Notes under the pieces: generated by a model
Told to the model about the DNA's origin: nothing
The model's database searches: none
The model's input: the letters and a program-made list of their open reading frames with translations, nothing else
Position numbers and translations under genes: made by a program
In this document: in pieces, positions 6,903 through 63,497 of the stretch
Numbering within the stretch: the first letter of the stretch is position 1
Layout: every line of letters begins with the position of its first letter
IMG/VR virus record: IMGVR_UViG_3300044825_003153
Coordinates: 6,928 to 70,927 of that record
DNA: 64,000 nucleotides
Direction: 5' to 3' (one strand)
From: a virus

Positions 6903-6960
6903 GTCGGCGCGCGGGCGGCTCCGGCCGCCCGCCTGCCCCTCCCAGCAACCGGAGACGACC

Positions 6961-7542
6961 ATGTTCCTCCTGTACAAGGCCGCGACCACCGGGCTCCCCG
7001 TGTGGAAGGCGGCCGACGACGACGCCAGCCAGCCCCACATCGTCGAGCTGGTCGCCATGCTGTGCAACAGCACCGGCGACCGCGTCGAGACGCTGTGCCT
7101 GATCGTACGACCCGACGGCTGGGAGATCCCCGCCCAGTCGACGGCGATCCACGGGATCACCGAGGTCGAGGCCAAAGCCTCGCCGATCGACGAACAGACC
7201 GCGCTCGGCCGGTTCCTCGGGATGATGGTGAAGGCGCACACGCGGGTCGGCTGGAACGAGCCGTTCGACAGCCGCATCATCCGGATCGCGCTCGCGCGCT
7301 ACCTGCCGGAGACGGTCGAGGGCTGGGGCCGGCAAACCGCGATCTGCGCCATGCGCCAGACCCTGGACTACCTCGCCGAGACCGACCCGGGAACGTTCCA
7401 CGGCCGCACGCTGAAGCTGCAGGCGGCCTGGGATCACCTGTACCCGTCCGAGCCGCAGGACGTGACCGAGAGCACCCTCGATACCGTCGAGGCCTGCCGG
7501 CGCCTGTTCTTCGCGACAAAGCTCCGGGGAGGGGAGCGGTGA
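6961..7542 (+). CDS. DnaQ/DEDDh-fold exonuclease-like protein with degenerate catalytic motifs
   Basis: TTGLP...QPHIVEL...IHGIT...WNEPFDSRIIRIAL fits the DnaQ fold, but ExoI reads YKAATTG instead of xDxETTG. Confidence 0.75.
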   Translation: MFLLYKAATTGLPVWKAADDDASQPHIVELVAMLCNSTGDRVETLCLIVRPDGWEIPAQSTAIHGITEVEAKASPIDEQTALGRFLGMMVKAHTRVGWNEPFDSRIIRIALARYLPETVEGWGRQTAICAMRQTLDYLAETDPGTFHGRTLKLQAAWDHLYPSEPQDVTESTLDTVEACRRLFFATKLRGGER

Positions 7543-7757
7543 CCCGCTGGATCTACGCCGACGAGACCAAGCCGATCCCGCGGCCCGTCTTCGCCGAGTT
7601 CACCTGCGACGGCGACCACGGCCTGTTCGACCCGTCCAAGCTGACCGTCGAGCTGTTCGTCGCCGGCCGTGACAGCTGGACCCAGGCCACGGCGCACGGG
7701 TGGAGCGTCACCCCCGAGCTGTGCCTGTGCCCGGAGTGCAAGGGCAAGCCGTCATGA
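7539..7757 (+). CDS. Small Cys-containing hypothetical protein
   Basis: GTG start overlapping the upstream stop. CDG...CLCPEC possible Zn ligands. Confidence 0.6.
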   Translation: MTRWIYADETKPIPRPVFAEFTCDGDHGLFDPSKLTVELFVAGRDSWTQATAHGWSVTPELCLCPECKGKPS

Positions 7758-8200
7758 ACCGCGGCATCCTGTTCAGCGCGCCGATGGTGCGCGCGATCCT
7801 CGCCGGCACGAAGACCGAGACGCGCCGGCTCGCTACCTCGCCGCTCGGCAAGCTGACCCTGCCGGCCGAGCTGTGGGTCCGGGAGACGTGGTACCCCACC
7901 GGGCCGGCGCCCGGGGATACCGCCTTCCGGGCGACCAGCGACCCCGAGGCCTGGGAGCCGCCCGACGGGTGGAAGCCAAGCCTCTTCATGCCGGAGTTCC
8001 GCTCAAGGATCCGGCTGAAGGTCACCAGCAACTTCGTCGAGAACCTCCGGGCGATCGAGGACGAGCAGGCCCGGCGAGAAGGCGTCGCCGACCGCGAGGC
8101 CTACCGCGAGCTGTGGGACACGCTCCACCAGAAGCCCGGCACCCGCTGGGCGGACGACCCGATCGTCACCGTCCTGCAGTTCGAGCGCATCCAACCCTGA
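7754..8200 (+). CDS. ASCH/PUA-like phage protein
   Basis: ILFSAPMVRAILAGTKTETRR...LWVRETW...WKPSLFMP, a conserved phage family. Confidence 0.75.
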   Translation: MNRGILFSAPMVRAILAGTKTETRRLATSPLGKLTLPAELWVRETWYPTGPAPGDTAFRATSDPEAWEPPDGWKPSLFMPEFRSRIRLKVTSNFVENLRAIEDEQARREGVADREAYRELWDTLHQKPGTRWADDPIVTVLQFERIQP

Positions 8201-8214
8201 ACCAAGGAGCCATC

Positions 8215-8970
8215 ATGCTGAAGCACCTCCTGGCGGCAGCGCTGCTGCTCGCCGCGGTCCCGGCCAAGGCCGCGACCATCGACGTCCTCGTGACGTTCAC
8301 GCCCGCGGCGCAGACCAAGATGGTGGCCCAGGCCGGATCGGTCACCACCTACGTCGACCGGATGCTGGAGAACGCCAACCGCGCGCTGCTCTACACCGGC
8401 AGCGGGCACCAGCTGCGCGTTGCGACCAGCACCACCGGCGCCGCCGGGCGCAAGCTCTTCTCGGGCTACCTGGAGACGTCGCTCTACGGCGACTTCACCG
8501 TCTTCGTTCAGCCGGGCGACGGGTATCTCGACCAGGTGCACAACTGGCGCAACCAGTTCCGCGGCGACGTGGCGGTGCTGATCGGGGACTATGGGCCCGG
8601 CGAGTTCAACACTGGTATCGCCGAGCGCCAGCCCGTGCAGAACGAAGGCGACGCCTTTCTCGGCTGCGACGTCGACCGCTGCAACCAGGGCGGGGAATGG
8701 GTGTTCGCGCACGAGCTCGGCCACCTCGCCGGCTGCGGCCACGAAAGCCAGACGGCGATCGACACGACGGCCTATGAGATCCCCGGCACGAACATCATCG
8801 ACCTGATGTTCACCTACGGCTACCCAAACAAGACCCGGCTATTGTTCTATGGGACGAACCGGGTGGCGCCGAACTTCTACGGGATGCAGAATGTCCGGAT
8901 CGGCGACGCCAATCACGATTGCGGCGGATCGTGGATCTTCTTCGGCAACGTCATGTCAAACTACCGCTAA
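8215..8970 (+). CDS. Secreted metzincin (reprolysin/M12B-like) zinc metalloprotease
   Basis: Signal peptide MLKHLLAAALLLAAVPAKA, zinc motif HELGHLAGCGH, Met-turn DLMFTY. Confidence 0.8.
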   Translation: MLKHLLAAALLLAAVPAKAATIDVLVTFTPAAQTKMVAQAGSVTTYVDRMLENANRALLYTGSGHQLRVATSTTGAAGRKLFSGYLETSLYGDFTVFVQPGDGYLDQVHNWRNQFRGDVAVLIGDYGPGEFNTGIAERQPVQNEGDAFLGCDVDRCNQGGEWVFAHELGHLAGCGHESQTAIDTTAYEIPGTNIIDLMFTYGYPNKTRLLFYGTNRVAPNFYGMQNVRIGDANHDCGGSWIFFGNVMSNYR

Positions 8971-8996
8971 TCGTCCAGCAACAGGGGAACCTCACC

Positions 8997-9560
8997 GTGA
9001 CGAATGAAAACACGACCGTCTTCAATCCGGTCAACTGCGATAAGCACTATACCGACGGCGTTCTCAATCAGTTGACAATCTCCACCGAATTGCGCGATTA
9101 CCTGGACCTCTGCCGTATGGCCCGAAGCAAGGAGCCGTTCCTCCTGTACGGGATCGGCCCGGAACCTTACACGGTTCGCCATGAGTACTCCGGGTATCGC
9201 AACAACATGCTCTACGCGACCTTTGCCGTTGAAGTGGTAAAGGAGGCCACTCCTGCCCAGGAGACAAATAGAGCGATCGTCATCAGGTCGAAATACGCCG
9301 AGATCGCGCTTGAAGTTCAGCAGCTCTTGAACAACCAAGCGTCGCATCGCACGATCGGCGCCTACGTGCAGGACCATGGAAAGGAAATCCTCGCGGCGCT
9401 CCAGGCCGGGACTGTTGAAGCCATCGAGCGGGCTGATGAAGCACATTGCGCCCGGGTGAAGCTCCTGCAAACGGTAGGCGACAAAGACATGACCCTCAAG
9501 GACATGCGCTACCTCGCCATGTCCGACGCGATCGTCGCGGCCTGGGGGGAGGGCACCTGA
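8997..9560 (+). CDS. Hypothetical protein (lower GC than neighbours)
   Basis: GTG start downstream of a CCAGCAAC box. Confidence 0.55.
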   Translation: MTNENTTVFNPVNCDKHYTDGVLNQLTISTELRDYLDLCRMARSKEPFLLYGIGPEPYTVRHEYSGYRNNMLYATFAVEVVKEATPAQETNRAIVIRSKYAEIALEVQQLLNNQASHRTIGAYVQDHGKEILAALQAGTVEAIERADEAHCARVKLLQTVGDKDMTLKDMRYLAMSDAIVAAWGEGT

Positions 9561-9561
9561 C

Positions 9562-9768
9562 ATGTCGCTCAAGCCGTCCGACGTCGTGCGCGACCCTAAG
9601 CTCTTCAATGAATGGTGGAACCGTCGCGACCTCGGCGATGACCGCCTCATCGTCGCCACCGCCCTCCGCGCCGGCCTGATCCGGCGGGAAGACCGCGGCA
9701 CCCACGATCTGCTGGTCCTGACCCAGGCCGGCAGGAAGCTGCGCGAACAGGCTTGGGCGCCAGCTTAA
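9562..9768 (+). CDS. Hypothetical protein
   Basis: 68-aa ORF starting 1 nt after the upstream stop. Confidence 0.55.
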   Translation: MSLKPSDVVRDPKLFNEWWNRRDLGDDRLIVATALRAGLIRREDRGTHDLLVLTQAGRKLREQAWAPA

Positions 9769-9782
9769 TAGACGCGGCACAT

Positions 9783-9810
9783 CGGCCGCGCGGTCGTCAG
9801 CCGCGCGGCC
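9783..9810. terminator. Hairpin between convergent transcription units
   Basis: GGCCGCGCGG-N7-CCGCGCGGCC. Confidence 0.45.
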
Positions 9811-10057
9811 AGCCCAGCATCAGCCTCCACCAATCGAGCCAGCTGCTGCGCGGCTTGGCGCTCGCGATTGATCCGGGGCTACAGTTGATCGGCTGATCGT
9901 GCTTGATGGCCGCGGCGCCCATGCCCCTGACCTGCTCGGCCGGAACGTGCAGGATGACAAGGTCGCCCCATAGCCACGGCGGAGCCGACTGTGGCTCTAC
10001 AGGCCACTCCGCCCGAACCGGCCATTCCACGCTTGCGCCATTCGCCGCGTCAGACAT
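9797..10057 (-). CDS. Hypothetical protein
   Basis: ATG overlapping the upstream stop (ATGTCTGA). Confidence 0.4.
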   Translation of the reverse strand: MSDAANGASVEWPVRAEWPVEPQSAPPWLWGDLVILHVPAEQVRGMGAAAIKHDQPINCSPGSIASAKPRSSWLDWWRLMLGWPRG

Positions 10058-10409
10058 TCTGCTTCTCCGGCAGCCGGTAGCGCCCGGTAACATCGTCTCG
10101 GTGCAGCTCGCCCTTGGTCGCAGCAACCGACAGCAGCGAGCCGATGGTCTTCGTGTTGAAGAACGGATTGAACTCGTGCGCGGCCGCGACCAGCTCGCGG
10201 AAGCCCAGACCCTCGGGGTGCCGCGCCAGGATCGCCCACAGCGCCGCTCGGACCGGCGAGCGGTGCGGCCGGGATGGCGCCGGCGCCGGCACCTCGGGCG
10301 CTCGCGCCGGCCGCAGGCTCACATAGAGGTCGCGGGCCTGCTGCAGACCGGCCAGCTGCGCCCGGGTCGTGGCGATCTCCGCGTCCAGCGCGTCGGCATA
10401 CTCAGACAT
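10050..10409 (-). CDS. Coiled-coil plus winged-HTH protein
   Basis: N-terminal heptads, then VRAALWAILARHPEGLGFRELV...TIGSLLS...GELHRDDVTGRYRL. Confidence 0.65.
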   Translation of the reverse strand: MSEYADALDAEIATTRAQLAGLQQARDLYVSLRPARAPEVPAPAPSRPHRSPVRAALWAILARHPEGLGFRELVAAAHEFNPFFNTKTIGSLLSVAATKGELHRDDVTGRYRLPEKQNV

Positions 10410-10444
10410 CGGCGCAGACCTCCTCGGCGAGCGCCTGGTCAACG

Positions 10445-10669: not shown

Positions 10670-11112
10670 CACCCTTGGTCCATCGCCGCTTCCAGGCACT
10701 CGACTTCCACAAAGGATTGGGCGTTGGCGTAGCCGCGGCCGGCGAAGGGCTCGGCCGCCTTGCGCAAGGCCTCGACAATCTTCGGGATGTCGGCCTCGGT
10801 GAGCGAATCGTCGCCGCAGCTGATCTGCACCCCGATGTGCACGTAGGCCAAAGGACTGACCCGCTCGAGCCAGTACCGGCGGACACGACGACCCTGCTCC
10901 TCTTCCAGCTTGGTCCTGACGATCCGGTATCGAGGTCCGGTCTCGCCACCGACGGTGAACCTGGTCCCGGCAGTCATCGCCTCAAGCATCGGCCCGTTGA
11001 CCGCGTGAGCGAGCGGGACGGTGACCGTCTCCACCAGCCCGCTGTCTTCGTCTTTCTCGACCTGCACATCGCCTGTGAAGTTGAACCAGAGATCACCCTC
11101 GGCCATCGGCAT
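10669..11112 (-). CDS. Hypothetical protein
   Basis: 147-aa ORF preceded by CGCCAGCAACGGGAAG on the minus strand. Confidence 0.6.
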   Translation of the reverse strand: MPMAEGDLWFNFTGDVQVEKDEDSGLVETVTVPLAHAVNGPMLEAMTAGTRFTVGGETGPRYRIVRTKLEEEQGRRVRRYWLERVSPLAYVHIGVQISCGDDSLTEADIPKIVEALRKAAEPFAGRGYANAQSFVEVECLEAAMDQG

Positions 11113-11269
11113 CTTCCCGTTGCTGGCGCCTCGCCAGCTCGCGGTCGATCGCGGCCCGGATCAGTTGGCCGGTGGTCTCGCCGGCGGCGAGCAGCGCCCG
11201 GATGCGGGCGAGCGTGCCGGGGAGCCAGCGGATCAGGTACGTCTCGGAGAACCGGGGCGGGCGGGGCAT
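11093..11269 (-). CDS. Small ribbon-helix-helix-like DNA-binding protein
   Basis: MPRPPRFSETYLIRWLPGTLARIRALL..GETTGQLIRAAIDREL. Confidence 0.6.
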   Translation of the reverse strand: MPRPPRFSETYLIRWLPGTLARIRALLAAGETTGQLIRAAIDRELARRQQREDADGRG

Positions 11270-11495
11270 GGCCGGATCATGCGGTATATACCTATTGCCG
11301 GCAAGGCCCGGCGCGACGTATCCTTCGCGGCGGATGGCGGACGCGGAAGCCCGCCGAACGGTGGTTTTAGTAGGGTCGCCTGGGCGGGTTGCGAATGCCC
11401 AAGGCAAGGGGTTCGACGCCCTGCGCCGATAGGTTCCAAGGTGACTGCTGGAGTAGCGCCCGGCCCGCCATCCACCCCAGCAACAGGAGACGTCG

Positions 11496-11753
11496 ATGCC
11501 GCTTTTCCGAAAGACTGCTCTCGTCGAAGCAACGCAATGGTTCAAGCACGGCGATCATGACGCCGTGCAGAAGATCCCACCGTTCCACCACGAACACGCC
11601 GGCAGGGACGACCTCGGCTGGGTGCCGACCCTCGAGGGCGGGCACGTCGTCACGCCCGGCGATTGGATCGCAGGCCCTGGCGCAAAGGGCGAGTTCTGGC
11701 CGATCAAGCCGGAGGTTTTCCAGGCAACCTACGAGCCGGCCAATGCTGCATAA
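11496..11753 (+). CDS. Conserved phage protein (TLEG..PGDWI..GEFxPxKP family)
   Basis: PTLEGGHVVTPGDWIAGPGAKGEFWPIKPEVFQATYE, strong RBS. Confidence 0.8.
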   Translation: MPLFRKTALVEATQWFKHGDHDAVQKIPPFHHEHAGRDDLGWVPTLEGGHVVTPGDWIAGPGAKGEFWPIKPEVFQATYEPANAA

Positions 11754-12153: not shown

Positions 12154-12156
12154 ATC

Positions 12157-13142: not shown

Positions 13143-13159
13143 ACTTGGAGCCTCTATTG

Positions 13160-53121: not shown

Positions 53122-53201
53122 AGCCCAGCTGGAACGGTCCGCGGTGCGATCGCGGATCGTTCATGGTGCGCTCTGCACCTCTCCCAGCAACGGAGGATAG
53201 C

Positions 53202-53721
53202 ATGTCGAACGACAAACACCGCGTCGCGGTGGGGTTTCGTCGCGATAACCGCTACGGCACCGACCATCTGATCGCGTGGCCGGCCATACTCGTGCACGCC
53301 GACGATCGCAGCCTGCGCTTCCTGCGCAGCTATGTGTCGTCCTACGACGAGAAGCTCGATCTCGAGAGCCTGCAGCTCGACTGTTTCGCGTCGGATACGA
53401 ACGGCCAGATCGTCGATGTCGGTTGGGTCACCTACCGGCAGCCCTACGATGTCGACATCGCTCGCGCCAAGCGGATGGTGAAGACCCTGGAAAGCGCCAG
53501 CCGCGCTTACCAGCGGCACGAGCCGGTCGACTTTGGCGACAAGGTCAGGTGCCTGGCCTTGTGGCTCAAGGCAGAGATCATCGTCGAGCAGATCAACCAC
53601 CCCGGCCGCAACGTCGAGCTGGACGTGCACAGCATCCCGAATGGGATCTACAGCCTGCGGCAGGCGTATGCGCGAAATGGAGGCCGAAGCCAAGGTCAAG
53701 CTGGCCTTGAAGGCTGCCTGA
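53202..53721 (+). pseudogene. Hypothetical gene with an apparent single-base frameshift near 53665
   Basis: 520 nt from ATG to TGA. GC3-rich codons switch frame at about 53665 (MREMEAEAKVKLALKAA*). Confidence 0.45.
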
Positions 53722-53792
53722 TGCAGACCCTCGCCACGGCCATCGTGGTGGCCCTGCTCGGGCCGCTGATCGTGATCTGCCTGTTCTGGTAG
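53721..53792 (+). CDS. 23-aa hydrophobic peptide
   Basis: MQTLATAIVVALLGPLIVICLFW with TGATG coupling. Confidence 0.4.
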   Translation: MQTLATAIVVALLGPLIVICLFW

Positions 53793-53989
53793 GCCCAGTG
53801 TGTGCGGCCGGGGAGTTGGAGTGCTCCCCGGCCGGCACCGTCCCAGCAACAGGACAGCCGACCATATGGCGGCTGAATCCGCCCGCCGCCACCGAAAAGA
53901 TTCGGATGCTCCGGCAGTCCCCGGTCGAGGCCGAGGCCTGCCGGTGCCGCCAGATCGGCCGCACCACACTCCCAGCAACGGAGACCAGG

Positions 53990-54391
53990 ATGAAGATCGA
54001 GCAGATGAGCCGCCAAGCTGCGGACCTGATCGGCCGCCGCATGGCCGAGGTCGCGGCTGACCTCGCCCGCGAAATGGGACTGTCGGTCAAGTACGCCGGG
54101 GGCACCTACGGCGAGACCAGCTGCGTGACGAAGCTGGAGTTCACCGTGGCAGGCGGGGCCACCATCCATCAGGAGCGTGACCGCAAGTTCTTCCGCACCT
54201 GCGCCGCGCTCTACGGCCTGAGCGCCAGCGATCTGGATCGGGAGTTCGAGCATCCGCGGCAAGGTCGCATGAAGATCGTCGGCATGACCGCTCGCGGGAA
54301 GAATTGCATCATCCTGAAGGGCGCCGATGGCAAGAGCTTCCGGGCCAGCCCGGAGTTCGTCAAGCACTTCATCGGCAAGCAGGCCGCCTAG
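53990..54391 (+). CDS. Hypothetical protein
   Basis: ATG after a leader box. Confidence 0.7.
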   Translation: MKIEQMSRQAADLIGRRMAEVAADLAREMGLSVKYAGGTYGETSCVTKLEFTVAGGATIHQERDRKFFRTCAALYGLSASDLDREFEHPRQGRMKIVGMTARGKNCIILKGADGKSFRASPEFVKHFIGKQAA

Positions 54392-54491
54392 CATTGGCAC
54401 CGCCCGGCCGCGCGCCGGGCGGTCCATCTTCTCATTTCATCTGTTGCAGCATACAATAGGGACTTTCACTCCCAGCAACCGGAGGAGTTTC

Positions 54492-55304
54492 GTGGGAAAG
54501 ACTACAATCGAATGGACGGAGTTAACCTGGAACCCGTTTGTCGGGTGCGAGATCGTGTCCGCAGGGTGCACCAACTGCTACGCCATGAAGATGGCGCATC
54601 GGCTGGAAGGCATGATGACCGCCTCGTACATGGGCACGACGAAGGTCGTGAACGGTAACACGGTCTGGACCGGCAGGATCAACCGATCCTCGGACGCGAC
54701 GATGCAGATGCCCCTGCGCAAGCCTGGATCGCATCTGTTCTTCGTCAACTCGATGTCTGACTTCTGGCACGAGAACGCCAAGGACGAATGGCGCAAGGAA
54801 GCGCTCGACATCATGCGACGCTGCCCGCGCCACCAGTTCCAGGTCCTGACGAAGCGGCCGCAGAACATCCAGCCGATCCTCGATCGGATGGAGGAGAAGC
54901 TGCCGGACAATCTCTGGCTCGGCTGCACGGTCGAGGATCATCGGGTCCGCGACCGCATCGACATCCTGCGCCAGGTGCCGGCCTCGATCCGGTTCCTGTC
55001 GGTGGAGCCTATGGTTGCCGAGCCTGGTCAGATGGACCTCACCGACATCCATTGGGTGATCGGCGGCGGCGAAAGTGGTCCGGGCGCCCGGCGAATGAAG
55101 CCGGCATGGGCCAGAGAACTTCGCGATCAATGCTTGGAGCAAGGCGTCAAGTATTTTTTCAAGCAGTGGGGGACCTACTGGAACAACCCGCTGGTCGTTG
55201 AACAGAAGAAGAGCATCTACGAAGCCCAAGCTCTCGATCCGCATGGTAAAGGCGGATCGCTTCTCGACGGCGTGGCCTGGAAACAGTTCCCGCGCCTGCC
55301 ATGA
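54492..55304 (+). CDS. DUF5131 (Gp37/Gp68-like, radical-SAM-like) protein
   Basis: TWNPFVGCEIVSAGCTNCYA, FVNSMSDFWH, FQVLTKRP, RFLSVEP, WVIGGGESG, FFKQWG. Confidence 0.92.
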   Translation: MGKTTIEWTELTWNPFVGCEIVSAGCTNCYAMKMAHRLEGMMTASYMGTTKVVNGNTVWTGRINRSSDATMQMPLRKPGSHLFFVNSMSDFWHENAKDEWRKEALDIMRRCPRHQFQVLTKRPQNIQPILDRMEEKLPDNLWLGCTVEDHRVRDRIDILRQVPASIRFLSVEPMVAEPGQMDLTDIHWVIGGGESGPGARRMKPAWARELRDQCLEQGVKYFFKQWGTYWNNPLVVEQKKSIYEAQALDPHGKGGSLLDGVAWKQFPRLP

Positions 55305-55639
55305 GGGGCTGTCACGGCAATCATGCCCGAGGCGGCAAGCACCCAGCTTGGTCCCCAAGCAAGATGCTGTCCGCTGATGGCTACGTGAAGATCCGGGTCG
55401 GCAAGACCCATCCCCTCGCCTTCGGCCGTGGATACGCCTACGAGCACCTTGTCGTGTGGGTGTCCGCGGGCAACCCCCGGCCGCCGAAGGGCTACCTGCT
55501 GCACCACCGGGATGAAGACCGGACCAACAACCGGCTGGAGAACCTGGAGTGCATCAGCCGGGTCGAGCACAACCGCCTGCACAACGCGCAGCGCGGTCGT
55601 GATCCGGCCACGGGACGGCTCCTGCCAAGGTCGAACTAA
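55301..55639 (+). CDS. HNH endonuclease (homing-like)
   Basis: YEHLVVW...LLHHRDEDRTNNRLENLECISRVEHNRLH. Confidence 0.85.
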   Translation: MRGCHGNHARGGKHPAWSPSKMLSADGYVKIRVGKTHPLAFGRGYAYEHLVVWVSAGNPRPPKGYLLHHRDEDRTNNRLENLECISRVEHNRLHNAQRGRDPATGRLLPRSN

Positions 55640-55719
55640 CGGACGCAGGCGGTATCCCCGGTGAGCAGTCGCCGGGGATACAGGGTGCGCCCGCACCATC
55701 CCAGCAACGGAGACACGAC

Positions 55720-56061
55720 ATGACCGAGTTCACGGTCCGGTGGCCTGATCCGCCGGACGGGACCCTGCAGGCCTATGGCCGCAACGGGTCGGTCAAGCAG
55801 ACCGGCGTCCATGTGTGGGACGTCGGGTCCTACATCATCGTCCGGGCGATCAGCAGCCGCGGCCACGTCAGCGACGCGGCGAACCTGAAGCTGCCGGCCG
55901 AGCCCACCAAGCTGATCGAGCTCGCCACCGGCCTGATCGCCATGGCGAACGCGATGCAGGCCGAGCAGACCGCCAAGCGGCGCAATGCTGCAGGTGCGAG
56001 CAACTCTCCGGGAATCTCGGATAGTTCGCCCTCCCCTGCCCTGCGTGTCCTGGGAGGCTGA
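55720..56061 (+). CDS. Hypothetical protein
   Basis: ATG after a leader box. Confidence 0.7.
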   Translation: MTEFTVRWPDPPDGTLQAYGRNGSVKQTGVHVWDVGSYIIVRAISSRGHVSDAANLKLPAEPTKLIELATGLIAMANAMQAEQTAKRRNAAGASNSPGISDSSPSPALRVLGG

Positions 56062-56065
56062 GGCC

Positions 56066-56554
56066 ATGGCCGACTACTTCGCCCAGGCCGTGGTCCACGA
56101 AGACTTCCCGGCCGACAAGTTGACCGAGCGCGACCAGCTGTTGCTGGGCGCCTTCGGCTTCGAGGTTCACGACGATGGCAACGGCAGCTTCAACCTGACC
56201 TGCGAGGAAGGCTGGCAGGACGAGCTCGATGCCGACCAGCTCGCCGACGACTTCGACCCCGACGAGGTCGACGAGATCCTGGGCGAGGCCGAGTGCCTGG
56301 GGATCTTCGACTACCTGCAGGGGCTGATGGGACGCTGCGGGATGCCGGTGATCACGATGGAGATCGCGTTCACCTGCTCGAAGATGCGGCTCGATGGGTT
56401 CGGCGGCGCCGGGTACGTCATCACGCCCGACGCCGTGCACAGCATGAGCACGGCCGAGTGGATCGAGAAGAAGCTCGACGAGCTGGGCCTGTTGACGCCA
56501 AGCCCGGCCGACGCCGCGGCGCTCGCGCTGATGGGGGAGGCCGCCGATGCCTGA
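56066..56554 (+). CDS. Acidic conserved hypothetical protein
   Basis: MADYF...EIAFTCSKMRLDGFGGAGYVIT. Confidence 0.7.
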   Translation: MADYFAQAVVHEDFPADKLTERDQLLLGAFGFEVHDDGNGSFNLTCEEGWQDELDADQLADDFDPDEVDEILGEAECLGIFDYLQGLMGRCGMPVITMEIAFTCSKMRLDGFGGAGYVITPDAVHSMSTAEWIEKKLDELGLLTPSPADAAALALMGEAADA

Positions 56555-56951
56555 TCCGTGCGAACGGCTCCTGCAGGCGCTGCAGGAGATCGCGGACGGC
56601 TCCGACCACACCGGTCGGTGGCTGGATGCGGACGGCAGCGAGTGCGAGGAGGGCGACGAAGGCGCGCGCTGGGAAGAGTTCACCGCCGAGGAACAATCGG
56701 CGTGGCTCGACAGCGTCGCCGAGATCGCCCGGCGCGCCATCGCCGAGCACAAGGCGCAGGCCGACGATCCGCGCTTCCCCGCCTATCCGGCGGAGGGCGT
56801 GGCCGCGGCCGTCGCGATGGTCGACACCGGCGATCGCGAACCCACCCACGCACGGTTGCCGGACGGGTCGATCGTCCCCTGGGACGAGAGGCTTCAGACG
56901 GTGGATTGCGCTGCGCTCTACCTGCTGGAGCCGGATGACGGCTATGCCTAG
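56547..56951 (+). CDS. Acidic hypothetical protein
   Basis: Overlap-coupled to the upstream gene. Confidence 0.65.
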   Translation: MPDPCERLLQALQEIADGSDHTGRWLDADGSECEEGDEGARWEEFTAEEQSAWLDSVAEIARRAIAEHKAQADDPRFPAYPAEGVAAAVAMVDTGDREPTHARLPDGSIVPWDERLQTVDCAALYLLEPDDGYA

Positions 56952-57159
56952 ACCGATCTCCCGTCGCGCCGAGGTCCTTCTCGACCTGCTGCGCGCGTGG
57001 CACGTCCCGCACCAAATGCGGCCGACGTGGTGCAGCGCGGAGGAGCTCGACGGCATCCTGCGGGCACTGGAGGCCGCGGGGCGCATCGAGGTCCACAGCG
57101 CCGATGAGGCCATGTTCGCCCGGTCGCCGGCCAAGTGCCGGGTCCGGGCCTGCAGCTGA
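56944..57159 (+). CDS. Hypothetical protein
   Basis: Overlap-coupled to the upstream gene. Confidence 0.55.
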   Translation: MPRPISRRAEVLLDLLRAWHVPHQMRPTWCSAEELDGILRALEAAGRIEVHSADEAMFARSPAKCRVRACS

Positions 57160-57245
57160 TCCGACCGTAGCTCTGTCCGTCCGGCGTGCGGTGCCGGGCG
57201 GACCATGGTGCGGTTGGCACCGAACTCCCAGCAACGGAGATGATC

Positions 57246-57584
57246 ATGGTGATGAAGAGGATGGGCCTCGCCCTGGCCCTGGTGGCGCTCGCCGGCTGTG
57301 CCGGCCGGGACGCCCAGCCGGTGGCGGTGGTGCAGGCCCACGACGATGGCATGACCTGCCAGCAGATCGAAGGCGAGATCGCGGCGAACAGCCAGAAGAT
57401 CGCCCAGCTGCAGGCCGAGAAGAGCGGCAAGCTCGCCCAGAACGTCGCGGCGGGGATCGGCGGGCTGTTCCTGTTCCCGATCTGGTTCGCGATGGACTTC
57501 AAGGGCGCGGCGGCCACCGACGAGCAGGCCCTGAACTCGCGGCAGGTGCAGCTCGGCGGCCTCGCCCGCGAGGAGGGGTGCTGA
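57246..57584 (+). CDS. Lipoprotein
   Basis: MKRMGLALALVALAG-C lipobox, after a leader box. Confidence 0.8.
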   Translation: MVMKRMGLALALVALAGCAGRDAQPVAVVQAHDDGMTCQQIEGEIAANSQKIAQLQAEKSGKLAQNVAAGIGGLFLFPIWFAMDFKGAAATDEQALNSRQVQLGGLAREEGC

Positions 57585-57681
57585 CCTTCCCTGCCGCGTG
57601 AGCCCAGCTCGGACCCCAGCCGGTATCCCCGGCTGGTGTCCCTGGTGCGCTCATGCACCGTCCAGCAACGGGACAAGGCAC

Positions 57682-57948
57682 ATGAAGATCGACGACTTGC
57701 AGCGGGTCAAAGACCTCAGCGAGGAGCTGAGCTACCTGCGCCAGCACCGCACGAAGGTCGCTGTCGCCGAAGGCGTCAACGTCAACGGCGTTGGCTTCCT
57801 CCCGGTGAAGCGCAAGGAGACCTGGAACTACGTCCAGATCCCCCAGGCGACGCTCATGGCGGTTAAGTCGCTGCTGATCGCCACCATCGACGCCGAGATC
57901 GAGCGGGTCGCCGGCGAGCTGCGCACCCTGGGCGTGGAGGTCGACTGA
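57682..57948 (+). CDS. Hypothetical protein
   Basis: ATG after a leader box. Confidence 0.7.
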   Translation: MKIDDLQRVKDLSEELSYLRQHRTKVAVAEGVNVNGVGFLPVKRKETWNYVQIPQATLMAVKSLLIATIDAEIERVAGELRTLGVEVD

Positions 57949-58451
57949 TGCCCGACTGCAGCGCGATGTGGATCAAGATCGGCGGCGTCCTCAAGGAGGA
58001 GCACGTCGAAGAGTTCGCCGAACTGATCTCCGAGCTTGGCCTGGAATACGACGATGTGCTCGGCGAAGACGCGGAACAGCATATCCGCGAGGATCACGAG
58101 GCCGGCAAGCCGCTGTGCCTCTACGACAATGAGCGCCCGTGGGGCAGCCACGACCATCTGGAGGGCTTCTGCCAGACAGTCGGGCTGTCCTACGCCCGCG
58201 GCGACGATGGGCACTACAGCTATGCCGCCAGCTGCGTCCTGTGGACGCCCGAGATCGCAAAAGAGCGGGAGTGGACTTCCGCCACCGACAGCGGCGAACC
58301 GTTCCTGTCGGTCACCGATATCGACCAGCTTGTAGCCAAGGGAGAGCTGGAAGCCGAGCTCGCCCTGATGCGACAGGTCCGGGACTTCGCGGTGCCGTTC
58401 TCGGCGCCGGGCTGGCCCGAGGACGCGGAGGACGCCGATGCAGCAGCCTAG
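57948..58451 (+). CDS. Acidic hypothetical protein
   Basis: TGATG coupling. Confidence 0.7.
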   Translation: MPDCSAMWIKIGGVLKEEHVEEFAELISELGLEYDDVLGEDAEQHIREDHEAGKPLCLYDNERPWGSHDHLEGFCQTVGLSYARGDDGHYSYAASCVLWTPEIAKEREWTSATDSGEPFLSVTDIDQLVAKGELEAELALMRQVRDFAVPFSAPGWPEDAEDADAAA

Positions 58452-58974
58452 CGTGGACTACGCCGCGATCGCCGCGAACCTCGCGGCGGTGGCGGCAGTG
58501 GCGGCGAGGGCGATCCGCACGACCATGCCCCCGCCGCCTGCCCCTGCCCTCCAGCCGGCCAAGGCAAAACCGGCCGCAAGCGCGGCGCCGGTGGTACCCC
58601 CGCCGGAACCCCGACGCAAGCTGCGCGAGCCGCGAAGCACGTCACGGGTGAAGCCGGGCGCACCGGGCACGCTGAGCTACCAGTCCAAGCACGCCTTCGA
58701 CGACTGGAAGCCCTACGTCATCAAGCCCTACGAGAACGAGCTGGCGCGGCAGTCCCGGGCCTACATCGCCTCGGTGCTGCGGGTCCGACGCGACCCGGAG
58801 CGGATGGAGCGGGCCTACAAGGACTGGTGGTGGGAGACCTTCCGGGGTACCCGCCCGATGCCCGAGCGCGCGCCGGCCGAGTACGAGGGCTACGTGAAGC
58901 TCCACCCCGACACCGGCGAGGTCGTCGGCCGCTCCGGGGCCTGGGGCAAGGCTTACGGAGAGCGTCATGGGTGA
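58438..58974 (+). CDS. Hypothetical protein with a Pro/Ala-rich linker
   Basis: Overlap-coupled, typical codon use. Confidence 0.6.
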   Translation: MQQPSVDYAAIAANLAAVAAVAARAIRTTMPPPPAPALQPAKAKPAASAAPVVPPPEPRRKLREPRSTSRVKPGAPGTLSYQSKHAFDDWKPYVIKPYENELARQSRAYIASVLRVRRDPERMERAYKDWWWETFRGTRPMPERAPAEYEGYVKLHPDTGEVVGRSGAWGKAYGERHG

Positions 58975-59356
58975 GATCGCCGACATGATGCTGGAAGGCA
59001 TCCTGTGCCAGGAGTGCGGGGACGTCATCGACGTCGAGAGCGATGACAGTCCCGGCCATCCGGTGACCTGCGACGGCTGCCGTAGGCGCCACCGGACGAA
59101 GGCGAAGAAGCCCGTCATCAACGCCGCCAGCCTGGGAGGAAAGCTGCTGCGGACCCTGCAGGCCGTCTCCGGATGGAAGTCGCCCATGTACGATGGGATG
59201 CCGGTCGTGCAGGCCCCAGCGCAGCTTGAGCGGTTGCGTCGACACGGGCTGGTCCGGTTCGAGCAGCCGCACAACCCGGTCCATCGTGAGCGAGCGGTGA
59301 TCACCGCGGAGGGGCTGGCGGTCCTGGCCCAAGTGACGCCGCCCAAGTCGAAGTAG
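58967..59356 (+). CDS. Zn-finger phage protein
   Basis: MGEIADMMLEGILCQECG...CDGC. Confidence 0.7.
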   Translation: MGEIADMMLEGILCQECGDVIDVESDDSPGHPVTCDGCRRRHRTKAKKPVINAASLGGKLLRTLQAVSGWKSPMYDGMPVVQAPAQLERLRRHGLVRFEQPHNPVHRERAVITAEGLAVLAQVTPPKSK

Positions 59357-59442
59357 CCGAGTCCAGCTAGAACCCTCGTCGGGGGCTCCCCGGCGGGGGT
59401 TCCTGGTGCACTCGGCACCAACCCCAGCAACGGGACTGAGAC

Positions 59443-59787
59443 ATGAAGCTGATCAAGACAGACTACACCGTCATCCGGGTCGGCGCGGAGCCGCAGGGAA
59501 TGACGGTGCAGTGGCCGCTCGAGCCCGACTACGACACCATCCGGCGCCTGGTCGAGCCGGTGCTCGCGGCTGCCCTGCTCGAGCGGGTGCGGGTCTGGCA
59601 CACCAAGCAGTACCTGGACATGTTCGTGGATGACCAGGGCCAACTGAAGCGGCTGCCGATCAACGACATCGCCACGATGATCTATCGGGCGAACGCCCTG
59701 CAGCACCAGCAGCCGACCCCGGTCGCGGCCGCGCTGCCGCGCATCTACGGGCCGGCCGTGCTGTTCCACCGCCCGGTCTGGAGCTGA
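59443..59787 (+). CDS. DUF3846-like protein
   Basis: MFVDDQG..KRLPINDIAT...IYGPAVL, after a leader box. Confidence 0.7.
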   Translation: MKLIKTDYTVIRVGAEPQGMTVQWPLEPDYDTIRRLVEPVLAAALLERVRVWHTKQYLDMFVDDQGQLKRLPINDIATMIYRANALQHQQPTPVAAALPRIYGPAVLFHRPVWS

Positions 59788-59790
59788 GCC

Positions 59791-60033
59791 ATGGCGGCCC
59801 CCGATCACACGACCTACCGCCACGGCCAGTACGAGTTCTACCGGCCCGGCGGCACCGGGCCTTGGATGGTGCACGACGGCGGCGACACCATCGTGGAGCT
59901 GCCGCCGACGTGGTTTCCCGTCGAAGTCATGCGCTACCTCGACGGCTTGGGCGAGGGCCTGCGCCGCGGCAATGAGGCCGGCCGGACCAACCTGCAGCGC
60001 GAGCTGCGCCGGTGTCTGGGAGTGACGCCATGA
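59791..60033 (+). CDS. Hypothetical protein
   Basis: 80-aa ORF, coupled to its neighbours. Confidence 0.55.
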   Translation: MAAPDHTTYRHGQYEFYRPGGTGPWMVHDGGDTIVELPPTWFPVEVMRYLDGLGEGLRRGNEAGRTNLQRELRRCLGVTP

Positions 60034-60569
60034 GGGGACTGAAGCGGATCGACCTGGACCTCAACAAGCCGCTGGAGATGAAGCCGGACCCGCGCGACAT
60101 CCTGGTCACGGCGATCATCATCCCGCCCGGCCTGATCGTGAGCACCCTGATCCCCTACGATTGCGTCGGGGAGGTCTACAGGCTCGACGACTATGTCGAC
60201 GAGGAAGGTCGGCGGTGGGGCGACCTGATCAAGTCGTGGGACGGCTACATGGAAATCGAAGCCGTGATCTATGACGGGATCGAGGGGTTCGCCGCCGACA
60301 ACGAGAGCGTCGGCCACATGATGACCTCGCTGCTGTGGCTGCACCTGCGCAATCCGCGCCAGCCGGCGATGTTGGGCCGGATCAGCCAGTTCATCGAAAC
60401 CGACGGCGTTGCCGCGCTGACCGGCATCTTCAACCGGCTGACCCAGCAAGTCTCGCTGGTCGTGTCCGATCGCTACTGCCCGCCCTGCACGACGAAGGCG
60501 GTGATGGAGACTTTCCAGCCGATGCCCGACGATGGCGGCGCGCCCGCGCCGGGCCTGCACCTGCACTGA
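60030..60569 (+). CDS. Hypothetical protein
   Basis: ATGA overlap with the upstream gene. Confidence 0.65.
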   Translation: MRGLKRIDLDLNKPLEMKPDPRDILVTAIIIPPGLIVSTLIPYDCVGEVYRLDDYVDEEGRRWGDLIKSWDGYMEIEAVIYDGIEGFAADNESVGHMMTSLLWLHLRNPRQPAMLGRISQFIETDGVAALTGIFNRLTQQVSLVVSDRYCPPCTTKAVMETFQPMPDDGGAPAPGLHLH

Positions 60570-60659
60570 CCTTCCGGCATCCGCCCCGGTGCGATCGGGG
60601 CGGATAGCGGAGCGCCAGTCAAGGACGGCTCCAATCCTCTCCCCGGCAGGAGAAACACG

Positions 60660-60905
60660 ATGCTTGCCACCAAGGTTGACATACGGCGGCCTCGCCGAAA
60701 CGTCGTCGAGTACGACGTGACCTACGACAACGGTGAGGTCCGGACCTACCACGCCAACCGCGTGGCTACCTTCTTCGGGCCGCACGACGGCAAACCAGCG
60801 ATGCAGACGGGCGGCGGCGCTACGACCCTTTGGCGGGACGATGACGTTGAGATGCTGCGGGCCTTCCAGCGCGCTTTCGGCCGCGTGCCGATGAACCTCG
60901 CCTGA
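60660..60905 (+). CDS. Hypothetical protein
   Basis: Follows a variant leader with AGGAG. Confidence 0.6.
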   Translation: MLATKVDIRRPRRNVVEYDVTYDNGEVRTYHANRVATFFGPHDGKPAMQTGGGATTLWRDDDVEMLRAFQRAFGRVPMNLA

Positions 60906-61166
60906 CCTGAACCTTCGCCACCCGCCACCGCGGCGGGGATGCTATAGGGGGTGCCGTCAAGTCAGACGGTGCCTCCCTAATCCCTCGCTTGCCCCGGCCG
61001 GCGCCCGCCGGCTGGGGCGCCCTTCCCCAGCAGATCGAGCGTAGCGGTATCCCCGGACCCGGACCCCCGGGGATACCGGTGCGTTCGTGCACCGTCTGCA
61101 TGTTTATTTTTCCGCCCTCATCGGAGGCGGCAAAAGTGGACATGGCCCAGCACTTGGACAACCGAC

Positions 61167-61661
61167 ATGAAGCTCTCTTACCAGGAGAGTGCGACCATCT
61201 TGGCCGCGCTCCGCTACTGGCAGGGGCACATGGCACCCGACGGGTCGCCACCGCTCGACGCCGGTCACTTCGAGTTCACCAAGCCGCTGTCGTCGGCGGA
61301 GATCAACGTCCTCTGCGAGCGCATCAACTGCGGGCCCGACGACGCCATCGACACGTCCGACATCCCCGAGGCCACAGAGGAGTGGTTCGCCAAGGCCAAG
61401 CTGCGGCTGCCCGAGGGGATCACGCCGGACCACATCAAGGCGATCATCGACAACCTCGAGGCCTGGTTCGATCGGGTCCACGCCGAGTACGTGCAGCTCG
61501 TCGGCGATAACGCCGTGCTGAAGGCCGACAAGGCCGAGCTGCTGGCGGCGCTGGAGTGGATTGCCGCCCTGCCCCTGTCGCACGGAACTAACGACAGCCT
61601 AGGCCTCAGCACGGCCAAGCACCGTGCCGCCCAGACCATCGCCAAGCACAAGGAGGGCTGA
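61167..61661 (+). CDS. Hypothetical protein with a coiled coil
   Basis: 164-aa ORF with typical codon use. Confidence 0.65.
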   Translation: MKLSYQESATILAALRYWQGHMAPDGSPPLDAGHFEFTKPLSSAEINVLCERINCGPDDAIDTSDIPEATEEWFAKAKLRLPEGITPDHIKAIIDNLEAWFDRVHAEYVQLVGDNAVLKADKAELLAALEWIAALPLSHGTNDSLGLSTAKHRAAQTIAKHKEG

Positions 61662-61664
61662 CCC

Positions 61665-61892
61665 ATGCCCAATCTCGACGAGCTCGAGACGGACAGCGAC
61701 GGCGAACCCTGTGTCTGGCGCAACCACTACGAGTGCGACCAGTGCGGCGCCGAATGGACCGACGACTGGTCATGTCAGTGCAACGATCACTGCCCTGGCT
61801 GCGACGCCGAGATCGAGCCTACCAACAGCGACTGGCTGCCGGACGATCTTACGGAAGACCAGCTCGCCGCCATGGAGGGCCAGCCGTCATGA
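61665..61892 (+). CDS. Acidic Zn-ribbon protein
   Basis: CDQC...CNDHCPGC. Confidence 0.7.
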   Translation: MPNLDELETDSDGEPCVWRNHYECDQCGAEWTDDWSCQCNDHCPGCDAEIEPTNSDWLPDDLTEDQLAAMEGQPS

Positions 61893-62755
61893 CGGTGTCA
61901 GGACGCGACCTGGTCCCCAAGGAGACGATCGAAGAGCTGCTGCTGCACCGGCAGCGGGCGCTCGAGAAGTTCGCCGAGGCGGCCGAGGCCATGGCCGCCG
62001 CCGGCGACGCCGCCCGGCGTGCGATGCCGGGCCAGCACTTCAGCCTGACCGAGCAGCAGCTGAGCTACTGCCCGCAGGGCAACCACGCCACCAGCACGCG
62101 GCGCAGCCGCGAGGAGTGGATGGCCGTGGTCCGGCGCGAGCTCGACCTGCGCCTGTGGGAGCACCTGATCACCCGGTCGCGCCTGACCGAGGTCATGGAC
62201 CACAAGGCCAGGACCGAGTTCCGCGACAGCCTGCGCGGGCACCAAGCCGTGATCCCCGAGTGCACCCTGGAGTCGGTCCAGGCGACCCTGTTCGCGCACA
62301 TCAGCCAGGCCGAGGAGGTCCTGAAGCGCGGGGTCAAGACGCTGTTCCACCAGCTGCACCCGCGGTTCAAGACCCACGACCCGTTCAAGTACGGTCACCG
62401 GTTCATCGTCAACGGGATGTTCTCGGTGTCGAAGTGGAGGGACGGCGCGCACCTCAGCCGCGGCTATGGCTGGCGGGACGAGCAGCTCGTCGATCTTGAG
62501 CGGATCCTCTACGTGCTCGACGGCAAGCCGCCGCCGGAGCACGTCGCGACGTTCTGGGCTCGGCTCAACGCCGCGCACCCGACCCTGACCAAGGCGCCGA
62601 TGGAGTTCGAGGACGACTACCTGCACATGCGGTGGTTCCTCAACGGCAACGCCCACGTCCGGATCAAGCGGGACGACCTGGTCGACCGCATCAACGCCAT
62701 CCTCGCCGAGGACGGCGGTATCCCCGATGGTACCCAGCATGGGAGGGCTGCCTGA
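61889..62755 (+). CDS. DUF4942-like protein
   Basis: ELDLRLWEHLI...FTLESVQATLF..., DLERILYVLDGK, YLHMRWFLNGNAHV. Confidence 0.65.
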   Translation: MTVSGRDLVPKETIEELLLHRQRALEKFAEAAEAMAAAGDAARRAMPGQHFSLTEQQLSYCPQGNHATSTRRSREEWMAVVRRELDLRLWEHLITRSRLTEVMDHKARTEFRDSLRGHQAVIPECTLESVQATLFAHISQAEEVLKRGVKTLFHQLHPRFKTHDPFKYGHRFIVNGMFSVSKWRDGAHLSRGYGWRDEQLVDLERILYVLDGKPPPEHVATFWARLNAAHPTLTKAPMEFEDDYLHMRWFLNGNAHVRIKRDDLVDRINAILAEDGGIPDGTQHGRAA

Positions 62756-63081
62756 TGCCCCGTTTCCGCGTGTCCTACACCTTCGTCGACACGTTCCAAG
62801 GCGACGTGAAGGCGATCGCCTCGGCGGTCCGCGACCTGTTGTTCTCGACCAGCTTCAACCCACAAGACCTCAATGACTGGGGAGTGTTTCTGCGACAGGA
62901 TGGGACCTTCCGGCTCGAGGCCAAGCGCACGCTGGTCGACGAGTTCATGGAGACCAGCGAGCGCGCCGCGCTGCGCAAGTTCCTCTACGGCATGGACTTG
63001 CCCGACACGATCGACGTGAAGGCGATCAAGATCGAGTGCCTGACCGAGGAGCCGGCGCCGGCGACCGAGGTCGCGGCATGA
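62755..63081 (+). CDS. Hypothetical protein
   Basis: TGATG coupling. Confidence 0.6.
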   Translation: MPRFRVSYTFVDTFQGDVKAIASAVRDLLFSTSFNPQDLNDWGVFLRQDGTFRLEAKRTLVDEFMETSERAALRKFLYGMDLPDTIDVKAIKIECLTEEPAPATEVAA

Positions 63082-63395
63082 GCCCGCCGCTTCCTCGCCG
63101 TGCCCCGAGCGTCTCGCTCCGGGGCTACGACGGGGTGGACCTGGGTGTGCACCGGCTGACCAGCTCGCAAACGCTGTCGCTGGTGGCGCTCGCGGGCGCC
63201 GGCGACAAGGCGCGGGTGTCGATGCGCGGCGTCGGCATCGTGCATGTCGGCGACAAGCGGATCGGGTCGCCCGACCCGGCCGTCTGGCTCAGGCTGGTAG
63301 CGCTCGGGCTCGTAGAGGGCGCCGACGGCCAGATATGGACCACGCCCGACGGCGATGCTCTCGTCCAAGAATGGGTCAAGGCCGCCCAGGCCTAG
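63078..63395 (+). CDS. Hypothetical protein (possible wHTH)
   Basis: ATGA overlap; WLRLVALGLVEG...WTTPDG. Confidence 0.6.
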   Translation: MSPPLPRRAPSVSLRGYDGVDLGVHRLTSSQTLSLVALAGAGDKARVSMRGVGIVHVGDKRIGSPDPAVWLRLVALGLVEGADGQIWTTPDGDALVQEWVKAAQA

Positions 63396-63412
63396 CCCCT
63401 CCCCTGCCCCAC

Positions 63413-63448
63413 GGCCCACGGAATCCCGCGATTTCGTGGGCCCTTTTT
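63413..63448 (+). terminator. Rho-independent terminator
   Basis: GGCCCACG/CGTGGGCC stem followed by CTTTTT. Confidence 0.7.
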
Positions 63449-63497
63449 CGTGGGCCTCACCATCCCAGCAACCCGTACCCCAGCAAGGACCCCACTG

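Follow-up and report, generated by a model that had tools for sequence, protein, structure and literature searches.

A short C/A-rich box beside the Shine-Dalgarno sequence marks the early, non-structural genes of an IMG/VR phage and is kept in several of its relatives

A stretch of 64,000 nucleotides from the IMG/VR virus record IMGVR_UViG_3300044825_003153 (positions 6,928 to 70,927), hereafter termed the window, was analysed with respect to an eight-base box, CCAGCAAC, that recurs a few bases upstream of start codons. The window represents bases 16-64015, on the reverse strand, of a contig of 70,943 nt (C110), binned in a 3.7-Mb metagenome-assembled genome (MAG) that is 80% complete with a G+C content of 68%. 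The whole of C110 looks phage-like. Gene calls were our own, made from codon-position G+C. The left arm (1-14 kb, plus strand) encodes RecT, an exonuclease-like protein, TerB, an M12 protease and two Xre-type helix-turn-helix (HTH) proteins (1030-1527 and 5580-5822). The late operon occupies the minus strand from 14.3 to 48.2 kb, running from the terminase to the tail and lysis genes, and is separated by a 1.5-kb non-coding tract from an array of small genes on the plus strand (49.7-64 kb). The closest isolate, as judged by the capsid protein, is Azospirillum phage Cd with 45% identity.

The box is present in 27 copies in the window, compared with 1.86 +/- 1.41 in shuffled sequences, and its density of 0.38/kb is about sixfold that in the rest of the MAG (0.065/kb). 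For 17 copies, a start on the same strand and with a coding signature follows 10-15 nt after the end of the box (binomial P = 3e-34). All 18 start-associated copies listed in a preliminary description of this DNA were recovered, along with a nineteenth that it had missed, at 2798 on the plus strand, 15 nt before the GTG start of the RecT gene (2821). Two of the listed copies are weaker. The copy at 63465 is separated from its ATG by 25 nt that include a degenerate second copy, CCCAGCAAG, and that at 53843 precedes an open reading frame (ORF) with poor codon bias (GC3 0.63). The start-associated or leader copies total approximately 19, all before early or non-structural genes, and seven further copies are intragenic. 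The longer sequence CCCAGCAACGGAG occurs once elsewhere in the MAG.

The restriction of the box to non-structural genes was upheld, since neither an exact nor a one-mismatch copy was found within 40 nt of any of the 34 late starts. Among starts preceded by a gap of at least 35 nt, the box was present at 13 of 16 in the early array and at none of 11 in the late operon (Fisher P = 3e-5); it was likewise absent from all 11 translationally coupled starts in the early array. All eight bases, one G included, stay the same at 19 sites. A copy at a start either matches exactly or carries two or more mismatches; single mismatches do not occur there. The box is C/A-rich, U-free and asymmetric, and has a single orientation relative to transcription. 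It was previously thought to overlap the Shine-Dalgarno (SD) sequence, but in fact adjoins it on the 5' side with a spacing of 0-3 nt (0-1 nt in the array modules described below), the SD sequence lying 6-11 nt from the start; the type of SD sequence varies in the relatives. The earlier proposal of a regulon was supported as far as position at translation starts, uniform orientation and gene class are concerned, and by neighbouring hairpins of the kind expected in mRNA (see below), but not in its SD overlap or in its version with a small RNA (sRNA) as the reader.

The box can also occur on its own. Copies at 2798, 8975, 11119 (minus strand) and 11477 are bare, and those at 2798 and 11119 lie inside the 3' ends of upstream genes, which shows that the box can occur without hairpins, even within the end of a preceding gene. 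The copy at 6942 had been grouped with the bare ones but is preceded, 5 nt away, by a stem of 8 bp.

In the array the box forms the 3' end of a module of approximately 80 nt (Table 1). The module begins with a stop codon, AGCCCAGCU(A/G)G, a first hairpin (HP1), (C)AU and a second, clamp hairpin (HP2), and continues with 0-7 nt, CCAGCAAC, 0-1 nt, GGAG, 6-9 nt and AUG. HP1 has a GC-rich stem of 11-14 bp, different in sequence in each copy, with compensatory changes at 10 of 13 pairs. It is followed by CAUGGUGC and by no T-run, and is therefore not a standard terminator; the sole true terminator in the array is that at 63413-63442. HP2 is a clamp of 5-7 bp, mostly GGUGC-N3-9-GCACC. At 54472 an AT-rich, sigma-70-like promoter takes the place of the hairpins, so that the box would fall in a short 5' untranslated region (UTR), close to where the transcript begins.

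Table 1. Leaders and box copies in the window (aa, amino acids).
Feature	Coordinates	Strand	Elements
Leader 1	49620..49697	+	hairpins; clamp GGGAGCG/CGCUCCC 49656-49672; box 49676-49683; GGAG; ATG 49695, 67-aa Arg-rich protein
Leader 2	50048..50120	+	HP1 50048-50078; clamp GGUGC/GCACC 50079-50096; box 50097-50104; GGAGG; ATG 50118
Leader 3	50747..50829	+	HP1; clamp 50785-50805; box 50809-50816; ATG 50827
Leader 4	51041..51124	+	HP1; clamp 51078-51096; box 51100-51107; ATG 51122 (DUF932-like)
Leader 5	52320..52395	+	HP1; clamp 52354-52370; box 52374-52381; ATG 52393 (DUF2786/DUF7168)
Leader 6	53132..53204	+	HP1; clamp 53165-53179; box 53184-53191; ATG 53202
Leader 7	53805..53868	+	hairpin with conserved UUGGAG loop; box 53843-53850; ATG 53866
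Leader 8	53913..53992	+	HP1; clamp 53943-53965; box 53972-53979; ATG 53990
Leader 9	54429..54494	+	sigma-70-like promoter TTCTCA-17-TACAAT 54429-54457; box 54472-54479 in short 5' UTR; GGAGG; GTG 54492 (DUF5131)
Leader 10	55652..55722	+	HP1; clamp 55684-55697; box 55701-55708; ATG 55720
Leader 11	57175..57248	+	HP1; clamp 57206-57222; box 57228-57235; ATG 57246
Leader 12	57611..57684	+	HP1; clamp 57643-57660; box 57662-57669; ATG 57682
Leader 13	59370..59445	+	HP1; clamp 59404-59420; box 59424-59431; ATG 59443
Leader 14	63413..63500	+	true terminator with T-run 63413-63442; box 63465-63472; degenerate second copy CCCAGCAAG; ATG 63498
Bare box	2798..2823	+	in 3' end of upstream gene; 15 nt before GTG 2821 (RecT)
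Leader at 6942	6911..6963	+	clamp GCGGGCGG/CCGCCUGC 6911-6936; box 6942-6949; C; GGAG; ATG 6961 (exonuclease-like)
Bare box	8975..8999	+	box 8975-8982; A; GGGG; GTG 8997
Bare box	11104..11126	-	box 11126-11119; GGGAAG; ATG 11106(-)
Bare box	11477..11498	+	box 11477-11484; A; GGAG; ATG 11496
Relic copy GCACC-ga-CCAGCAAC	595..602	-	after terminator, in 5' UTR; 51 nt before ATG 544(-); no adjoining SD

In 32 of 38 leaders the box is preceded, at a distance of 0-7 nt, by the end of a stem of 5 bp or more, compared with 41% of random sites (P = 5e-8). Covariation was assessed using 35 leaders from 7 contigs. In this alignment, which was fitted to a covariance model and to that extent favours structure, 90.9% of cells were paired and five of the six pairs changed on both sides. 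The covariation score of the clamp was 0.309, compared with 0.102 in shuffles, and was reached by none of 500 shuffles; controls in which the alignment was slid yielded no value near that observed. Folds of the sense strand were more stable than those of the antisense strand (mean -3.7 kcal/mol, 21/29, p = 0.003), a difference to be expected of RNA with G-U pairs but not of a site in duplex DNA. Folding also predicted the box to be single-stranded in the mRNA, with a mean unpaired probability for AGCAAC of 0.89 in the window and 0.75 in the relatives, against 0.38 at equivalent positions of late genes (P = 2e-5). Because a conserved SD sequence lies between the box and the start, the box must be transcribed. 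Retention of the 8-mer in relatives, compensating clamp stems and predicted single-strandedness together indicate a role at the level of RNA.

Several other structures were considered and rejected. A third mini-hairpin would pair CUCC with GGAG, sequester the SD sequence and leave the box as its loop; it was predicted in the window phage but is not conserved in the relatives, which carry A or AA instead of UC 5' of the box. Occlusion of the SD sequence ranges from 0.0 to 0.92 across the relatives, and late-gene SD sequences are equally occluded (0.37). An upstream ORF starting at an ATG in the clamp flank was discarded, as this codon varies (ATG, GTG, CTG, AGG) and the frames differ among copies. 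Integron attC sites and sigma-54 and extracytoplasmic function (ECF) sigma promoter patterns were compared by eye and none fits. Lambda-type nut sites do not fit either: these combine boxA with one hairpin of conserved loop and number one or two per operon, whereas here nothing resembles boxA, the loops of the clamp differ in both length and sequence, and one operon has at least 13 sites, each tied to an SD sequence. A search of Rfam gave no match at gathering score in the window and a single chance-level match at E < 1 in 49-60 kb.

Relatives were located by protein searches and not by exact-pattern scans. The identical 8-mer stands before successive genes in contigs L248 (Logan ERR12350078; 3 genes), L249 (ENA ERZ27271284; at least 4), L250/L251 (6), L256/L257 (4) and L258 (4), and before two genes in L254. 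Proteins common to the box-bearing contigs and the window share 47-69% identity. The data sets that contain the relatives are ERR12350078, SRR7083930, SRR11673796, SRR15327641, ERZ27271284 and JGI 3300074329. The clamp is kept in the relatives with other stems, namely GGUAC/GUACC, CGGAGCG/UGCUCCG, GAGGCG/CGCCUC, GUCGGC/GCCGAC, GCGGU/ACCGC and GUGGC/GCCAC. Besides its two canonical boxes L254 has the C/A-rich variants CCAACCAC, CCACGAAC and CCAGCCAC, and here the box has drifted to other C/A-rich forms. L252 carries an extended SD sequence, GGGAAAGGAUG, in place of the box, with remnants reading GCAAC upstream, and in this lineage the 3' part of the leader has evidently been replaced. The leader of the L252 array (1850-5760) comprises two variable hairpins, GUCGCGG..CCGCAC and then GGGAAAGGAUG, a near-perfect extended SD sequence. 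Its retention in related phages marks the box as a genuine gene-expression signal, one of a known kind that still lacks an explanation.

The order of the cassettes differs among the relatives, which are fragments, and leaders lie at the cassette borders. A 65-aa gene, for example, precedes the DUF932-like gene in the window, follows the DUF2786 gene in L256/L257 and precedes an 80-aa gene in L248.

No box was found in L253 or in L255. The capsid relative G101 (IMGVR_UViG_3300044825_002279), with 61% capsid identity and 68-74% nucleotide identity over the structural genes, has neither the box nor a comparable over-represented word, and relatives of the DUF932-like protein in Sphingomonadaceae genomes (~45% identity) also lack the box. 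The element was found in none of 100 related genomes. A pattern scan for clamp plus box gave three matches in IMG/VR; these, and those among the first 120 metagenome records, were isolated occurrences inside genes and attributable to chance, and the 85 matches to TCCCAGCAACGGAG in IMG/VR were likewise single and due to chance. When BLAST was used against isolated phages, 11 kb of the array had no near match and no leader was matched. One early protein of 196 aa had no homologue among 5.8 billion proteins, and another of 204 aa had one.

The host is less certain. No 16S gene was found in the MAG. The 16S genes of two genomes of the same genus look betaproteobacterial, whereas the nearest relatives of the phage proteins come from Alphaproteobacteria (Azospirillum phage Cd, Sphingomonadaceae), and for this reason the host implied by binning may be wrong.

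A number of further observations concern the array and its surroundings. The non-coding tract between terS and the array (48385-49400) contains 26 copies of CAGGGCCT and runs of GGGCCTCCCC, and is directly followed by an AT-richer, promoter-like stretch (49400-49600). The first array gene (49695-49898) encodes the 67-aa arginine-rich protein (P0274), which has no family match. Array cargo (51122-62755) includes DUF932-like, DUF2786/DUF7168, DUF5131 and DUF4942 proteins; with the ParB-like gene just left of the window, it is reminiscent of the leading-region gene sets of plasmids or integrative and conjugative elements. The stretch at 53805-53990 is 76% identical to L249 (9656-9850), the stem showing compensatory changes and the UUGGAG loop being conserved. 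Of the small ORF that follows the box at 53843, the first 16 codons are conserved in L249 (MAxxSAxRHRKxxxAP) and the remainder is not; this stretch may represent a leader peptide or a small RNA. An HNH_3 endonuclease gene at 55364-55639, whose leader has degenerate pieces only (CCCAGCTT..CCCCAAGCAAG) and no canonical box, may be a mobile intruder. Decayed box variants precede starts in the distal array (60660-63081), with CCCAGCAC at 61167 and CCCAGCAT at 62755. Two oversized tRNAs called by ARAGORN, Glu-CTC (99 nt, 2541-2639) and His-ATG (98 nt, 62427-62524), fall within well-supported coding regions and are probably false positives.

The reverse complement of the box, GTTGCTGG on the plus strand, was also observed within plus-strand genes of the left arm, at 1752-1759, 2347-2354, 4194-4201 and 4287-4294. 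These four intragenic copies share the codon frame xxG TTG CTG Gxx (Leu-Leu, three times LLVE), the TTG codon being rare at such a G+C content, and with the copy at 595 they make five in 3.7 kb (0.6-4.3 kb; Poisson P ~2e-7, test post hoc). The flanks of the copies do not lengthen the complementarity.

The box is the invariant core, predicted to be single-stranded, of a leader that heads each independently initiated early or non-structural unit. These are the sites at which ribosomes must load de novo in a GC-rich, strongly folding polycistronic RNA. C/A-rich tracts upstream of the SD sequence boost translation (PMC5934652), and the S1-dependent standby site of tisB consists of a single-stranded tract with a 5' stem-loop (PMC6690012). 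Since the properties of the box match those of such enhancers and standby sites, the reading favoured here, with a probability of roughly 45%, is that the box would be a cis-acting, C/A-rich landing or enhancer pad for the ribosome within a modular mRNA leader. The U-free box would offer the 30S subunit a place free of structure on which to land, probably by way of ribosomal protein S1, while the clamp hairpin would keep it open and insulate it from the surrounding intercistronic RNA, allowing efficient and uniform de novo initiation for each early cassette. Were the transcript cut between HP1 and HP2, the hairpins would protect the flanking cistrons. Because the module is standard, it might double as a plug-in junction for cassette exchange, and the differing cassette order, with leaders at the borders, makes it probably also an exchange junction, as are the stem-loop modules of T4-type phages (PMC2839356).

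A number of points weigh against a landing pad. A generic pad should tolerate permutations of C and A, yet the box is invariant at 19 sites and in five or six other contigs. At eight bases it is short, the CA tails used in experiments performing best at 16-18 nt (PMC5934652). Late genes do without it, yet their leaders are equally structured. The rest of the MAG makes little use of the box, 6 of 237 copies there being followed by an SD sequence and a start, compared with 0.9% for permuted 8-mers, and the host has been assigned by binning only.

Exact conservation of all eight bases suggests a sequence-specific reader, and the box is possibly an operator as well as a pad. That it serves instead as the operator of a dedicated trans-acting protein, recognised alone or together with the clamp and switching the whole early class, is a tentative alternative; candidates would be a translational repressor or activator like T4 RegA, an endoribonuclease acting beside GGAG like T4 RegB, or an HTH protein that binds leader RNA (Aca-type). 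There is room for such a reader because the eight positions are exact within and between genomes, with no one-mismatch start copies, because the box is confined to one temporal or functional class, and because the 3' part of the leader is lineage-specific (GGGAAAGGAUG in L252, CCAACCAC in L254), which fits co-evolution with a genome-encoded reader. The arginine-rich protein of the first early gene and the two Xre-type HTH proteins also speak for it, but the former has no detectable homologue in the box-bearing relatives. Moreover, the approximately 60 proteins scanned include no member of a recognisable RNA-binding or nuclease family, and no protein co-occurs with the box across the relatives, whose contigs are fragmentary. 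It is unlikely that recombination is the primary selected role, with expression effects secondary and cassettes swapped as described for T4-type phages (PMC2839356). The variable cassette order with leaders at the borders would be accounted for, as would the HNH endonuclease gene (55364-55639) and the near-empty cassette at 53843; however, identical blocks of just 8-14 nt and an HP1 different in each copy make a poor substrate for homologous recombination, while the fixed site beside the SD sequence, the strand-specific G-U pairs and the bare boxes in coding sequence argue for a role in expression. Very doubtful, too, is a site read in DNA, whether as part of a recurring promoter that a phage-modified RNA polymerase would recognise or as a repressor site resembling the stoperators of mycobacteriophage L5. 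The asymmetric box in one orientation relative to transcription, its repetition in the intergenic regions of one gene class and a clamp that forms an inverted repeat of conserved sequence within the genome would all suit such a site. The half-sites of the clamp are spaced 3-13 nt apart, though, and the relatives have other self-complementary stems; G-U pairs and better folding of the sense strand favour RNA, and the SD sequence between box and start means that the box is transcribed. Against an expectation of 0.9, the region 48.1-64 kb gave a single sigma-70-like match, located upstream of a box; a Pfam scan of the same approximately 60 proteins revealed no sigma factor or RNA polymerase gene. 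L5 stoperators occur in both genome arms, late operon included, unlike the box, which the late operon lacks.

Two further alternatives involve pairing of the box with another RNA. The preliminary description had named complementarity to an extended 3' end of the host 16S rRNA as grounds for refuting its proposal, and such complementarity was found in part. The 16S gene in two genomes of the same genus reads ...CCUCCUUU|CUGGAAAAC, and CCAGCAA(C)GGAGG, that is, box and SD sequence, could pair with the precursor sequence CCUCCUUUCUGG with one C-U mismatch and one bulged C, provided that the tail is two bases longer than usual. With a tail ending ...UUUCUGG the box leaders gain ~4 kcal/mol, compared with 1.5-2.3 for others, and L252 carries a true extended SD sequence, GGGAAAGGAUG, in the place of the box. 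With a tail ending ...UUUCU (...CCUCCUUUCU), however, box genes fare no better than late genes (-7.9 vs -8.1 kcal/mol), and pairing of the whole box needs the two additional precursor bases (GG). The invariant 5' CC and both internal C's would remain unpaired or mismatched, a perfect extension being AGAAAGGAGG. In the relatives the box lies 1-3 nt further from SD sequences of other types (AAGGA, ACAGGAG), so that its pairing partner would fall beyond the end of the rRNA. The GCAAC remnants upstream of the extended SD sequence in L252 point to separate modules, and the MAG offers no host 16S gene. Outside the tail, no box complement GTTGCTGG was found in the 16S of the two genomes. An extended SD interaction is retained as an improbable explanation because the precursor match is better than chance would suggest. 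A trans-acting sRNA containing GUUGCUGG and pairing with the boxes, as GcvB does with C/A-rich enhancers, is the least credible of the explanations considered. C/A-rich enhancers are known sRNA targets (cited in PMC5934652), and the five clustered plus-strand copies of GTTGCTGG in 0.6-4.3 kb could be taken as its trace, with the reservation that their Poisson P is post hoc. Four of the five are intragenic, though, in a single Leu-Leu codon frame and with flanks that add no complementarity. In the contig the complement never extends beyond the 8-mer, the complement of the 13-mer CCCAGCAACGGAG is absent throughout the 80%-complete MAG, and no Rfam family was found in the window.

The landing pad has a parallel in C/A-rich enhancers and standby sites, with which the leaders share a single-stranded C/A-rich tract upstream of the SD sequence and a 5' stem-loop (PMC5934652; tisB, PMC6690012). 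The known elements tolerate sequence changes and are usually longer, whereas here an exact 8-mer is repeated across a gene class. A class-wide signal for early genes at or beside the SD sequence recalls phage T4. There RegA and RegB control the early genes as a class, after transcription, through a signal within or adjoining the SD sequence, RegB cutting in GGAG. The T4 targets are not known to share a fixed 8-mer or a clamp hairpin, and the approximately 60 proteins scanned include no detectable homologue of RegA or RegB. Like the L5 stoperators (cited in PMC3203893), the boxes are many asymmetric intergenic sites oriented with transcription. Stoperators are DNA sites for the repressor and are not known to keep a fixed distance from the SD sequence, while the present box is not in the late operon and has RNA-type structure beside it.

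The promoter-early stem-loop (PeSL) of T4-type phages (PMC2839356, PMC4122927) is likewise a repeated regulatory module with a stem-loop, placed between small early accessory genes. T4-type relatives reshuffle their cassettes at the PeSLs; for the present leaders, the differing gene order in fragmentary relatives suggests the same. A PeSL comprises a strong sigma-70 promoter and a terminator; the leaders described here have no promoter consensus and no T-run after the hairpin, and their conserved core abuts the SD sequence. If the box is a portable tag for initiation or regulation, it would explain how arrays of unrelated early accessory genes can be expressed uniformly and exchanged freely, and it might furnish a compact expression part for GC-rich bacteria.

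In layout and distribution, and not as a member of the same sequence family, the box is the counterpart of the start-associated sequence (SAS) and extended SAS (ESAS) of Cluster K mycobacteriophages. Actinobacteriophages have been known since 2011 to carry start-associated repeats; the function of SAS and ESAS is still open (PMC3203893, PMC12699233). Both systems consist of a short asymmetric repeat in 11-19 copies per genome, in one orientation, a few bases before start codons. Both are confined to non-structural genes, often after a gap, are rare in the host genome and are conserved across diverged relatives. About half of the SAS copies are preceded by an inverted repeat whose spacer varies, a feature found here in 32 of 38 leaders. 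The SAS consensus, GGGATAGGAGCCC, is unrelated to CCAGCAAC and includes the SD core, whereas the present box lies 0-3 nt 5' of the SD sequence; the hosts are actinobacterial in the one case and represented by a proteobacterial MAG in the other. ESAS lacks support for RNA pairing and has been regarded as a DNA site, in contrast to the hairpins described here, which covary and favour the sense strand. What is new is thus the different host phylum, hairpins whose covariation and strand preference point to mRNA and not DNA, and relatives that keep the same 8-mer or have visibly replaced it. It is conceivable, if still doubtful, that the box is a sequence-specific tag on early-gene mRNA through which a dedicated reader, either a phage protein or a ribosomal component, controls the class of anti-host and accessory cassettes. 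In that event any gene placed behind the hairpin-box connector would join the regulon at once, and the leaders would provide, in phages of proteobacteria, the first direct evidence that a system of the SAS type involves RNA structure.

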